A stretch of 15,755 bases of DNA from Opitutales bacterium (GTDB taxonomy: Bacteria; Verrucomicrobiota; Verrucomicrobiia; Opitutales; JABSRG01): the NCBI GenBank assembly GCA_049599475.1, contig JBMYOQ010000086.1:1-15755 (forward strand), in the 5' to 3' direction. Made by a program: the position numbers and the translations under genes. Each line of letters begins with the position of its first letter. The first letter of the stretch is position 1. Positions 9,325-13,484 of this stretch are shown here, in pieces. The notes under the pieces are model-generated. The model made no database searches. It was not told the DNA's origin and saw only the letters and a program-made list of their open reading frames with translations.

Positions 9325-9394
9325 GCAATCATAGCTAAGTGGTAAAGCATCCTGCTAAAACAGGAGAACGCTGGTTCGAATCCGGCTGATTGCC
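9325..9394 (+). tRNA. tRNA-like gene 1, tRNA-Gln-like architecture, with an aberrant 6-nt anticodon loop (CTAAAA)
   Basis: Perfect 7-bp acceptor stem (gcaatca/tgattgc). D-arm gct-aagtggtaa-agc. T-arm gctgg-TTCGAAT-ccggc. Anticodon stem tcctg/cagga encloses only 6 nt, and the whole gene is 70 nt. No encoded CCA. Confidence 0.6.
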
Positions 9395-9396
9395 CG

Positions 9397-9470
9397 ATAC
9401 TGTTAGCTCAGATTGGTAGAGCAGTTGATAATTAATCAATTAGTCCCGGGTTCAACTCCCGGACAGTAAT
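9397..9470 (+). tRNA. tRNA-like gene 2 with a non-canonical anticodon loop (TAATTAA, A at position 33)
   Basis: Canonical D-arm tagctcagattggtagagc and T-arm ccggg-TTCAACT-cccgg. Acceptor stem 6/7 with AU-rich pairs. Anticodon stem gttga/tcaat. Loop lacks U33, so the anticodon reads ATT by standard numbering. Starts 2 nt after gene 1. Confidence 0.5.
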
Positions 9471-9544
9471 AGGAAAGTAGAGCAACTGGTTAGCTCACAG
9501 GATTATGGTTCCTGCGGTTGGAGGTTCGAGTCCTCTCTTCCCGA
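9471..9544 (+). tRNA. tRNA-like gene 3 with an unusual anticodon loop TTATGGT (anticodon ATG, A34) and a weak acceptor stem
   Basis: D-arm gagc-aactggtta-gctc. Perfect anticodon stem cagga/tcctg. T-arm ggagg-TTCGAGT-cctct. Acceptor stem pairs only 5/7. Abuts gene 2 with no spacer. Confidence 0.5.
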
Positions 9545-9942
9545 CAAGGCATGGCCCGCCTCAAAAAGCCTCCTAGCCTGAAACGCTAGTCCTCATAAGC
9601 CCGCGAGGAATACGAGCTACTCGTGAATACCCGAAGGTAGGCTTCCTATTTTGGGAGGCCTATGCTTCAGCACAACCACCACTTGAGAGGTGTGGATACC
9701 GGACTCAAAAAGAGTTGCCCACTCATGCCGAAGGTAAGGCTCATTGTATTTTCTTCATGATACATCGAGACCAAGCCGGACACATGAGTCAGCATCTCCT
9801 ATTGATGCCTCAAACACCGCTCCGTGAGTCGGATGTTTGGTGGATCGTCTCGCTCAAATTCCCCGTGGGCATCTCATTTTCATTTTCGCGTGTCATTCGA
9901 TCGACGCGCGTTTCAACCCATAAACATCAACGAATAAATATC

Positions 9943-11120: not shown

Positions 11121-11903
11121 ATGAATCCACACACATTTGAAAAAATGGGTGCACGTATTCATGTGATTCATTCTCCGATACAAAAGAGATGGGTCCCTCC
11201 ATCTGGAGGTGCTATCCGTGGGCTCACAATCGATGTCCGCGGTGATACCTTCCTCGTGAACAAAACCGATGATACGGAATTGGTCGTACTCAATGCAGAC
11301 ATTAAAGGCAAACACTTGCTTCTAATGGCTCGCGACGAGTCCACAGGTCGTAACAACAAGTTTCTTTGTGGCTACGATGAGCGCGAATGGTTTGTCGCCT
11401 CAGTTCCTCGTGAAAGTACCGGCGTCGCAGATGCGAAAGACCGGCTGATGCCCTTGGAAGCTCGATTCTCTCAACTCCGTAATGGAGTTAAGGGAAAGAA
11501 AAAGCACTCTCGGCACAACAAAGGGTTCATTCGTCAAGGCGAATGGTTTTTCATCCCAGCTGGAGAAGTCTCAGTGGATAAAACAAAGGTCCTGAAAAAT
11601 GAACCCCTTACACGAGGGGGCGGCAGCAAGCCCCACATGGTCCAAGAACTCTATCGTACCGGAGGCGAGAATGTGCATGTCCACTTTGAATATGCACAAT
11701 TTGGCATCACCGATACGGAGTACAGCGCGCTCTCTGAAAAGAAGCGCCGTGCTCCTGGTTGGCGTATGATGAAACGTAATCCGGACGTGTTCGCAAAGGG
11801 ACAAGTCCGCCACGCCGATCATCAAACTGTCACCTTACGTGGGTGGTGTCGCGTTCGAATAAACCGCGAGGTCTCCACCCAAACAGTGGCCTTCCTCGAT
11901 TAA
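11121..11903 (+). CDS. Uncharacterised 260-aa protein between the SPFH and RtcB genes
   Basis: Long ORF with coding-like composition and a basic stretch (KGKKKHSRHNKG). Internal duplicated motif EREWFVASVP / QGEWFFIPAGE. No motif I can assign. No GGQ, so not PrfH. No TROVE, so not Ro60. Confidence 0.6.
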   Translation: MNPHTFEKMGARIHVIHSPIQKRWVPPSGGAIRGLTIDVRGDTFLVNKTDDTELVVLNADIKGKHLLLMARDESTGRNNKFLCGYDEREWFVASVPRESTGVADAKDRLMPLEARFSQLRNGVKGKKKHSRHNKGFIRQGEWFFIPAGEVSVDKTKVLKNEPLTRGGGSKPHMVQELYRTGGENVHVHFEYAQFGITDTEYSALSEKKRRAPGWRMMKRNPDVFAKGQVRHADHQTVTLRGWCRVRINREVSTQTVAFLD

Positions 11904-12051
11904 GAGAATCACCGAATACACACATAAAGACAATCTGAGGAGGCCTGAACTACATCGATCAGGCCTGCTCAACTTTTGATAGGGCTTAATCCGAACGTCG
12001 GAGACGACCTTATTGCTGACAGACAATAAACATCACATTTAGAAAACAATT

Positions 12052-13449
12052 ATGAACGCAGAAGATCTACGTCGATGGGGCGTGCCTCCCGGGGACGCGA
12101 CTCGCCTGACATTTCAAATCATTAAACGCCTCTTCAATGAGGCCATCCCGGCAAAATCTGTGCGCTCGCAACTGCTTGCAGTGATCCATGCGCCTTCAGA
12201 GCATCGCGAGGATTCACATTGGGCTCCGCTGGCAGAAATGCTCGAGAATACACCCGTGTTTGAAGCACGCGAAAGCCCAGCTCCCTACCAACAATGGGGA
12301 GAGGATCTCGACATCAACGCCATCGAGCAAATGCGTAATGCCTGCCAGCTCCCCGTCGCCGAAGCCGGAGCTCTGATGCCAGATGCCCATCTAGGATACG
12401 GTCTTCCGATCGGCGGTGTCCTGGCGACCAAGGGTGCGGTGATTCCATACGCAGTCGGTGTCGACATCGCTTGCCGTATGAAACTCACCGTCCTAGACCT
12501 TCCGCTAAAACACTTCGAAAAGCGAAACAAAATCGACCGCCTGAAAAGCGCGCTCGAGGCTGAAACGCGTTTCGGGACCGGAGCTCGTTTTCAGAACGAA
12601 GCAATCCGCAATCACGCAGTCATGGATGCGGACTGGTCCATCACCAAAGTAACTTCTGAGGTGAAGGATAAGGCGTGGACGCAGCTGGGAACATCCGGAA
12701 GTGGCAACCATTTTGTGGAGTTCGGTCTCTTCAAAATAGAAGCGAATGCGCTCGGCCTAGAGGCAGGGCAATATATCGCCCTACTCTCTCATAGCGGAAG
12801 CCGCGGAGCTGGAGCCGCAGTCGCCGGGCATTATTCAAAATTAGCACAGCGTGCTCATCCAGAATTGCCAGATAAGCTCAAGCATCTAGCTTGGCTTACG
12901 ATGGATTCTGAAGCCGGACAGGAATACTGGGCGGCGATGAATCTGATGGGCGAATACGCGGCCGCCAACCACGCATGTATCCATGAGCACATTGCAGACA
13001 ATCTCGGAGCCGAGGTCCTTCTCGATGTGGAGAACCACCATAACTTCGCATGGAAAGAAACGCACTTCGGCGAGGAGCTAATCGTGCACCGTAAAGGTGC
13101 GACACCCGCAGGTGCAGGAGTCCTTGGAGTTATCCCTGGATCCATGGCTAGCCCGGCTTACCTGGTCCAAGGGAAAGGAAAGCCGGAATCGCTGAACTCC
13201 GCATCACACGGTGCTGGCCGCGTAATGTCGCGACGCAAAGCTGCCGAGCATCTACGCTGGGAAGATGCCCGAAAGCTCCTAAAGGCACGCAATGTCGAAC
13301 TGCTCTCAGCAGGCCTCGACGAAGTGCCATCCGTTTACAAAGACATTGAAACGGTGATGGAGGCACAAACCGATCTCGTTGAAAAACTTGGTCGATTCCA
13401 CCCTCGCATCGTGAAGATGGCTCCTCCAGGTGAACGCCCAGAAGATTGA
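12052..13449 (+). CDS. rtcB: RtcB-family RNA 3'-phosphate/2',3'-cyclic-phosphate to 5'-OH ligase
   Basis: 465 aa. Conserved RtcB motifs: MPDAHLGYGLPIGGV, GVDIACRM, GTSGSGNHFVE, LLSHSGSRGAG, ENHHNFAW, VHRKGAT, SASHGAGRVMSR. HxGYG-type variant with a ~45-aa longer N-terminal region than E. coli RtcB. Confidence 0.93.
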   Translation: MNAEDLRRWGVPPGDATRLTFQIIKRLFNEAIPAKSVRSQLLAVIHAPSEHREDSHWAPLAEMLENTPVFEARESPAPYQQWGEDLDINAIEQMRNACQLPVAEAGALMPDAHLGYGLPIGGVLATKGAVIPYAVGVDIACRMKLTVLDLPLKHFEKRNKIDRLKSALEAETRFGTGARFQNEAIRNHAVMDADWSITKVTSEVKDKAWTQLGTSGSGNHFVEFGLFKIEANALGLEAGQYIALLSHSGSRGAGAAVAGHYSKLAQRAHPELPDKLKHLAWLTMDSEAGQEYWAAMNLMGEYAAANHACIHEHIADNLGAEVLLDVENHHNFAWKETHFGEELIVHRKGATPAGAGVLGVIPGSMASPAYLVQGKGKPESLNSASHGAGRVMSRRKAAEHLRWEDARKLLKARNVELLSAGLDEVPSVYKDIETVMEAQTDLVEKLGRFHPRIVKMAPPGERPED

Positions 13450-13455
13450 AAACGA

Positions 13456-13484
13456 TCCGAGCTCCCGAACCCCGGGAGCTCGGA
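13456..13484 (+). terminator. Strong 12-bp hairpin (tccgagctcccg-aaccc-cgggagctcgga) immediately after the rtcB stop. No U-tract.
   Basis: Perfect inverted repeat seen directly. It contains SacI, SmaI and EcoRI hexamers by chance. Confidence 0.4.

Follow-up and report, generated by a model that had tools for sequence, protein, structure and literature searches.

The stretch of DNA that we analyzed, hereafter the window, comprises 15,755 nucleotides (nt) of a contig from an Opitutales bacterium (JBMYOQ010000086.1, positions 1 to 15,755). It carries three tRNA-like genes, a gene for a soluble SPFH (Band-7) protein, a gene for a 260-residue protein that we call P260, and a gene for the RNA ligase RtcB, all on the forward strand (Table 1). 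A sequence-only reading of the window had described these elements between positions 9325 and 13484 and had taken them for a candidate RNA-damage/repair module. All of them, including an intact RtcB, were found where that reading placed them; with the start codon ATG 9943, the SPFH gene begins 398 nt downstream of the tRNA-likes (given as about 400 nt), and the gap of 148 nt before rtcB is likewise correct. Our comparisons with related loci, which are designated here by an L and a number, support the interpretation as a repair module and indicate that it is a reduced form, specific to its lineage, of a predicted system of RtcB, a Band-7 protein and a tRNA associated with Band-7 (b7a-tRNA), which is itself the tail of a cassette built on long tRNA arrays.

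Table 1. Features of the window, in order of position.
Feature	Position	Strand	Remarks
GH9 cellulase gene		+	
489-residue open reading frame	4203-5672	+	between GH9 cellulase and heme-type ABC importer
Heme-type ABC importer and HutZ-like gene	ending at 8321	+	
Terminator-like hairpin	~8978-9016		directly upstream of array-upstream element
Conserved array-upstream element	9030-9145	+	GGGTCAAACGTCACGTAA..GGCGTCCAAACC...GAGAGGGGCGAAAC; alignment, motif matches, blastn against L081, L169, L249
tRNA-like 1	9325-9394	+	Rfam tRNA 55.2 bits; 6-nt loop CUAAAA; ARAGORN assigns no anticodon
tRNA-like 2	9397-9470	+	Rfam tRNA 47.3 bits; loop UAAUUAA (A33, 'anticodon' AUU)
tRNA-like 3	9471-9544	+	Rfam tRNA 50.3 bits; loop UUAUGGU ('anticodon' AUG, A34; U33, G37)
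Conserved structured non-coding RNA	9545-9880	+	alignment, covariation, folding, nhmmer core match 9668-9844
Soluble SPFH/Band-7 protein, 371 residues	9943-11058	+	Pfam Band_7, E 2e-33
Intrinsic-terminator-like hairpin between SPFH and P260	11062-11091	+	13-bp stem, 8 G-C pairs, then TTTTTG
P260, 260 residues	11121-11903	+	unannotated family tied to tRNA arrays and RNA-repair operons
RtcB 3'-phosphate/5'-hydroxyl RNA ligase, 465 residues	12052-13449	+	Pfam RtcB, E 1e-88
Palindromic G+C-rich hairpin after rtcB	13456-13484	both	12-13-bp stem
GYF-domain protein, 377 residues	13852-14985	+	two N-terminal GYF_2 domains; downstream of rtcB

The SPFH protein consists of two extra N-terminal copies of a repeat of ~65 residues, a stomatin-like SPFH domain, the start of which is formed by a third copy of the repeat, and a C-terminal helical region. 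Its open reading frame extends from a TTG at 9715, and its homologs place the true start at the ATG given in Table 1. The triple repeat and the lack of a transmembrane segment had both been noticed in the sequence-only reading and hold up: the repeats score far above shuffled sequences (z 6.6-11.7), and since the maximum hydropathy over 19 residues is only 0.83, we assign no transmembrane segment. Sequence matches in the PDB were to chains of stomatin, QmcA and HflK. Membership in the membrane SPFH class (stomatin, HflK/C, flotillin) was rejected, as there is no membrane anchor and the HflK/C models of NCBIfam score far under their cut-off; an NfeD, protease or FtsH-type neighbor was not seen among the window proteins. 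In L081, which holds the closest relative of P260, the SPFH protein (6042-7559, 505 residues) has four extra N-terminal repeats as opposed to two, and the number of repeats is therefore variable within the subfamily.

Close SPFH relatives with the same 371-residue architecture are encoded on more than 534 metagenome stretches, from which we fetched 80 loci for an analysis of gene neighborhoods. In these, SPFH is the terminal gene, at the 3' end, after arrays of up to ~40 tRNAs, and a recurrent order of the array is Ser(gct), Arg(tct), His(gtg), HNH, Trp, Thr, three to four Arg, Cys(gca), b7a-tRNA and SPFH. No conserved gene follows SPFH in the metagenome loci. The full cassette comprises a long array of tRNAs in one orientation, often with an HNH endonuclease gene inside it, the b7a-tRNA, a structured RNA in an interval of 330-555 nt, and the soluble, repeat-bearing SPFH protein. 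Genes for HNH, GNAT and PDDEXK_3 proteins are scattered among the tRNAs of Verrucomicrobial arrays, and a family of ~270 residues without a Pfam match, which we labeled c11, lies inside or beside such arrays (L037:10135-10953, L008, L009, L031, L046).

We traced the b7a-tRNA with a profile for which 26 loci supplied their last tRNA. In 58 loci, nearly all those with enough upstream sequence, the profile gave a match of 48-80 bits that lies 330-555 nt upstream of the SPFH gene, and about half of these matches were missed by ARAGORN. The D and T arms hardly vary among the 53 unique copies (entropy about 0-0.4 bit) and the anticodon stem varies modestly (up to ~0.8 bit), whereas the loop positions 33 to 36 reach 1.3-1.75 bits. 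More than 25 'anticodons' occur, among them types with A34 (AAG, AGG, ATG) and types that read stop codons (TTA, CTA); the loop is 6 nt long in three copies and 8 nt long in one. C is the most frequent residue at position 33, a site that is U in nearly all tRNAs. A scaffold of which the loop alone is hypervariable is the pattern expected in an arms race with anticodon nucleases. The anticodons reading stop codons were found in L239 (TTA, 5537-5612) and L247 (CTA, 987-1063), and because of them these two b7a-tRNAs look like potential suppressor tRNAs.

In the Opitutales lineage, represented by the window and by L081, L169, L249 and L250, the b7a-tRNA takes the form of an abutting trio. The three genes of the window lie head to tail and were called by both ARAGORN and the Rfam tRNA model (gathering score 29 bits). 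None of them combines the features of a canonical elongator tRNA, namely a 7-nt loop, U33, a purine at position 37 and an anticodon used by bacteria, and CCA is encoded in none. Their earlier description as something other than ordinary tRNAs is thus borne out, by the 6-nt loop of the first, A33 with AUU in the second, and A34 with AUG in the third. The trio recurs in all four relatives and folds over the five loci into three cloverleaves with 62 pairs, 27 of which show compensatory changes; all three anticodon loops differ among the loci. In the homologs of the first tRNA-like, stem changes are compensatory and the loop is short or variable. The second is the window's best nhmmer match to the b7a-tRNA profile (31 bits), as is the middle element in each of the four relatives; its anticodon stem covaries, and its loops carry ATT, CTG, GAT and GAA, with one loop of 8 nt. 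The homologs of the third have the anticodons GAA, AAA, AAG and AAG. Since the trio is present in four relatives with compensatory changes, it appears to be maintained and not decayed.

The 398 nt that separate the trio from SPFH had been treated as a plain gap in the sequence-only reading, yet they hold a conserved structured RNA. The interval between b7a-tRNA and SPFH can be aligned across 46 loci with MAFFT, which is blind to structure, and RNAalifold arranges a consensus of 40 pairs into 8 helices, one of which closes the structure over a long range. In this consensus, 91.5% of the cells are paired, and compensatory changes are seen in 29 of the 40 pairs (218 cells). No observed value was reached by any of 500 shuffles, and slid partners pair in only 33-47%. 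The copy of the window, at ~9599-9869, is divergent and fits 26 of the 40 consensus pairs; folded alone, it forms the closing helix of the consensus (9599-9611 with 9857-9869) at −107.7 kcal/mol (z −5.24). Its core helices are formed by 9670-9708 with 9802-9838. Searches with Rfam 15 gave no match for this RNA in the window, L183, L199, L222 and L237, even at permissive E-values. Known RNA families were rejected as candidates, as Rfam returned tRNA matches only, besides weak ones to YrlA (21 bits) and to a tmRNA-like model (17 bits) that are far sub-threshold. A T-box-like specifier was rejected as well: at every position of the alignment, complement matches to the b7a anticodon fall within the permutation null (fraction at or above the observed value 0.26-1.0).

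Nothing in Pfam, NCBIfam, PHROGs or PADLOC matches P260, and the confident structure model of the protein matches no known fold. There are ~700 close homologs, all annotated as hypothetical, and the family comprises 2557 clusters at 50% identity. Its members are stand-alone proteins of ~250-300 residues with an invariant C-terminal FLD, and the best 150 representatives show no domain fusions. Hairpin turns carry Asp, Glu, His and Arg residues that are invariant, in DER, QGE and RHxDH; this cluster suggests a metal-dependent active site, from which we infer that P260 may be an enzyme. The family is found in more than 566 species genomes of the Verrucomicrobiota, Planctomycetota, Bacteroidota, Acidobacteriota, Chloroflexota and Gammaproteobacteria, a patchy distribution over phyla that is consistent with horizontal transfer. 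Cultured carriers of parts of the system are Chthoniobacter flavus and Brevifollis gellanilyticus, both with P260-RtcB loci, and Limnoglobus roseus.

The neighborhood of P260 was analyzed within 7 kb in 89 loci, by tblastn of defined queries. An RNA-repair gene is present in 48 of them. The idea that the 260-residue protein is a conserved partner of its neighbors here is supported by co-directional RtcB in 24 loci, Ro60/TROVE in 21 and SPFH in 13; RlaP nucleotidyltransferase follows with 10, and Tpt1 (5), RtcR (4), RtcA (3) and Pnkp/Hen1 (2) are rarer. An HNH gene is present in 21 loci, and in 38 P260 is embedded among 3-30 co-oriented tRNA genes. A repair gene or at least three tRNAs, co-oriented with P260, are found in 57 loci. 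P260 thus lies beside two unrelated ligase systems, RtcB and Pnkp/Hen1. In Limnoglobus roseus (L084; CP042425, 4184182-4200988), Pnkp-R2K-Hen1 is divergent from P260, and the same system adjoins P260 in L025. In L087, RtcR is followed by Ro60, P260, a further gene and RtcA, without RtcB. In L085, P260 has a fragmented extra EF-Tu gene on one side and a Tpt1/KptA RNA 2'-phosphotransferase on the other, and as we know of no substrate pathway for bacterial Tpt1, this neighborhood may be informative. P260 also occurs as an optional insert of arrays, between Arg(tct)/Ser(gga) and His(gtg) (L015, L067, L077, L244).

In RtcB, the motifs D-x-H, C, NHF, HSGSRG, HN and HGAGR are all kept, as judged from an alignment to the RtcB of P. 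horikoshii (4dwr), and Verrucomicrobiota and Planctomycetota commonly carry orthologs at 61-88% identity. We chose four close orthologs blind to their neighbors. Two of these lie behind 8 tRNAs and an abutting trio, followed by ~450 nt (L249, 85% identity) or ~460 nt (L250, 74%), an SPFH gene of 371 residues and one or more unknown proteins before RtcB, whereas the other two belong to classical operons of the type RtcR/Ro60/RtcA/RtcB (L251, 72%) and RtcR/RtcA/RtcB (L252, 64%). The linkage to SPFH that had been sought for this RtcB clade is present in two of these four orthologs. The place of P260 is taken in L249 (6005-6991) and L250 (5717-6712) by a protein of 328 and 331 residues, respectively, with 63% mutual identity and no Pfam match. 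It was rejected as a relative of P260 (hhalign probability 0.1), so the gene at this position, after SPFH and before RtcB, is interchangeable. In L249, an additional protein of 415 residues (4609-5856) is found between SPFH and RtcB. The Opitutales form of the cassette consists of the b7a trio and SPFH, then the interchangeable gene, which is P260 in the window, and then RtcB.

At the other end of the cassette, a conserved element precedes the array. Its motif, GGGTCAAACGTC...GGCGTCCAAACC...GAGAGGGGCGAAAC, is found ~100 nt ahead of the first array tRNA in L081, L169 and L249, and the copy of the window, at 9064, lies 260 nt before the trio. The element is probably the promoter or operator region of the cassette. 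The arrays themselves differ in size, with the three tRNA-likes in the window, 8-11 tRNA genes in L081, L169, L249 and L250, and up to ~40 in L183 and L188. Both ends of the small array are kept in the window and the 6-8 ordinary tRNAs of its relatives are absent, which makes the locus look like the remaining stump of a long array of tRNAs. The window keeps the array-upstream element, the trio, the structured RNA, SPFH, P260 and RtcB.

The terminators after SPFH had been described as weak. The hairpin between SPFH and P260 is in fact strong, with a 13-bp stem and a T run (Table 1), and it makes co-transcription of SPFH, P260 and rtcB, which the sequence-only reading had called unproven, doubtful. 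The hairpin after rtcB is likely the end of the module. Upstream, a gene-free stretch of ~1.6 kb separates the HutZ-like gene from SPFH. Its part before the array-upstream element (8322-9030) shows no homology in the related loci; it contains a terminator-like hairpin at ~8594-8632 and a match to the tmRNA model at 8525-8713 that is sub-threshold (17 bits against a gathering score of 47). Among the flanking genes, the 489-residue open reading frame has no Pfam or NCBIfam match, and the GYF_2 protein was not seen beside the cassette in any related locus.

Taken together, we estimate a probability of about 70% that the locus represents a reduced version of a tRNA-array/RNA-repair cassette that has spread horizontally. 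The identities of its genes and RNAs, the conservation of their linkage and, through covariation, the structure of the RNAs are direct results of the comparisons above. RtcB seals RNA ends with 2',3'-cyclic phosphate and 5'-OH, and this established chemistry, together with the gene context, points to a function in repair. Anticodon nucleases, ribotoxins or translational stress would cut tRNAs and leave such ends, and RtcB would reseal the cut tRNAs. An SPFH oligomer could form a scaffold or cofactor particle with the tRNA-likes and the structured RNA, paralleling Ro60 and Y RNA in rsr-yrlA-rtcB operons, and P260 might be an accessory factor that acts on tRNA or on broken RNA ends.

Several observations weigh against this interpretation. 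In 32 of the 89 P260 loci there is neither a tRNA array nor a repair gene within 7 kb, and most metagenomic SPFH cassettes have no RtcB or P260 nearby, for which reason SPFH, P260 and RtcB are a lineage-specific combination and not an obligate trio. SPFH and P260-RtcB may be separate transcription units and may thus be regulated separately. SPFH proteins are otherwise membrane scaffolds, and we know of none that binds RNA. Because its canonical tRNAs are lost, the locus may be a decaying remnant, and the biochemical role of every cassette part is one that we infer.

A possible, though clearly less probable, explanation is that the cassette is counter-defense cargo of a mobile element or phage, with spare tRNAs, nuclease-insensitive variants and a ligase that would keep the translation of the element going; the copy in the window would then be domesticated or decaying. 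This overlaps with a repair cassette, the main difference being who benefits. At least 90 viral contigs of IMG/VR carry P260, many of them 200-530 kb long, and the gene tends to lie in tRNA-rich regions: at least three tRNAs accompany it in 38 of 80 viral loci, with up to 40 in 16 kb, and one P260 copy adjoins a T4 gp13-like gene. The structured RNA/SPFH unit, in contrast, was found in none of these 80 loci, and in several genomes P260 is part of host-type operons controlled by RtcR. Spread by horizontal transfer and the presence of HNH homing endonucleases, as described for long arrays in PMC8421152, would suit mobile cargo, as would the loss of ordinary tRNAs from the window and the flanks downstream of SPFH, which are not conserved, as expected at the border of an island. 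Yet the proteins of the 15.7-kb window include no phage, integrase or conjugation gene, and the flanks of the cassette encode heme uptake, GH9 and other housekeeping-type functions.

The tRNA-like and structured RNAs could also be a cis-acting leader of SPFH, similar to an attenuator or riboswitch, that perhaps reports the integrity or charging of tRNAs; tRNA-sensing T-boxes provide a precedent. In every case the RNA lies immediately 5' of where SPFH starts, with 40-120 nt left to the Shine-Dalgarno sequence, and in many loci a U run follows its 3' strand. In many others this run is absent, and in the window it is weak. Moreover, no segment covaries with the hypervariable anticodon beyond the permutation null, the closing helix, with a span of 270-440 nt, differs from a local terminator hairpin, and with 330-550 nt and 8 covarying helices the RNA resembles large stand-alone RNAs more than leaders. 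We consider a leader unlikely. Far less likely still is chance adjacency, by which the tRNA-likes would be decayed pseudogenes of an array, and SPFH, as a protease or membrane scaffold, would be unrelated to P260 and RtcB. The absence of canonical tRNAs from the window, the defective anticodon loops and the terminator-like hairpin between SPFH and P260 would fit such a view, which the conservation data largely refute: compensatory changes in 27 pairs keep the three cloverleaves paired over five loci, the body of the b7a-tRNA is nearly invariant in its 53 unique copies, the gene linkage recurs across many phyla, and SPFH has no transmembrane segment and no NfeD or protease partner that we could see.

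Returning to the repair cassette, a more far-reaching version of it, to which we give little credence, would see an undescribed ribonucleoprotein machine: an SPFH cage with the structured RNA and 'bait' tRNA-likes, whose loops would be tuned to the anticodon nucleases of each lineage for sensing or sequestering them, and P260 as a metal-dependent enzyme of a new fold that would heal or process tRNA ends for RtcB or Pnkp/Hen1. As far as the searched literature and libraries show, the P260 family, the structured RNA and the hypervariable loop of the b7a-tRNA appear to be new, as does the place of this SPFH subfamily as the terminal gene of long tRNA arrays. The locus and its relatives tie together RNA-repair operons and long tRNA arrays, both of which are widespread and poorly understood. 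They add three testable parts, namely P260 with its ~2,500 clusters, a covarying RNA that is absent from Rfam, and a b7a-tRNA scaffold with a hypervariable loop, and they bear on what SPFH proteins and b7a-tRNAs do and on why bacteria and huge phages carry spare sets of tRNAs.

Among known systems, the closest is the Band-7/RtcB/b7a-tRNA neighborhood. According to bioRxiv 10.1101/312249, Burroughs and Aravind (2016) found that some bacteria encode RtcB beside a Band-7 protein and a 'band-7-associated tRNA' that they predicted, and the pair of Band-7 and b7a-tRNA was proposed there as a functional analog of Ro60 and Y RNA. The sequence-only reading had stated that no known partner of RtcB was present; as this neighborhood had already been predicted, the statement was wrong, and the reading as a repair module stands. 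The window shares with that purely computational prediction an intact RtcB, an SPFH protein encoded one gene upstream on the same strand, and tRNA-like RNAs, whose genes end 398 nt upstream of SPFH. It differs, relative to the description in this source, in the trio, in the covarying RNA before SPFH, in the insertion of P260, and in that the unit is the 3' end of arrays, although some of these differences may already be contained in Burroughs and Aravind (2016).

The metagenome arrays that end in SPFH correspond to the L-arrays of Santamaria-Gomez et al. (2021; PMC8421152). L-arrays are described as co-oriented and supernumerary, spread by horizontal transfer and present in Verrucomicrobia, Planctomycetes and Bacteroidetes, with HNH and rtcB as neighbors or co-regulated genes (PMC8421152; TrcR regulon, PMC10272220). 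The L-array of Anabaena is induced by translational stress (PMC8421152), and a role in surviving translational stress or tRNA cleavage has been proposed (PMC8421152, PMC10272220). Up to 43 tRNAs have been described in an L-array, whereas the window has three aberrant tRNA-likes only and no HNH gene. SPFH, Ro60 and TROVE are not mentioned in the searched text of PMC8421152, and the b7a-tRNA, the structured RNA and P260 are apparently not described in it. An SPFH gene is contained in the rtc locus of P. aeruginosa, according to PMC13086221. The structured RNA recalls GOLLD and ROOL (PMC12286853, PMC5737381), which are likewise large, ornate RNAs of bacteria and phages, of unknown function and typically located beside tRNA islands; the SPFH-linked RNA is shorter (~270-450 nt), always lies 5' of the SPFH gene and has no Rfam match.

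The Rsr (Ro60)-YrlA/Y RNA-RtcB operon of Salmonella and others, finally, shares with the window locus a ligase, an RNA-binding ring or scaffold, and an RNA with a tRNA-like domain. No TROVE protein is found among the window proteins, and the YrlA model reaches 21.2 bits against a gathering score of 69. The scaffold of the window is an SPFH protein where this operon has Ro60. In relatives of the window locus, Ro60/TROVE and P260 lie side by side.

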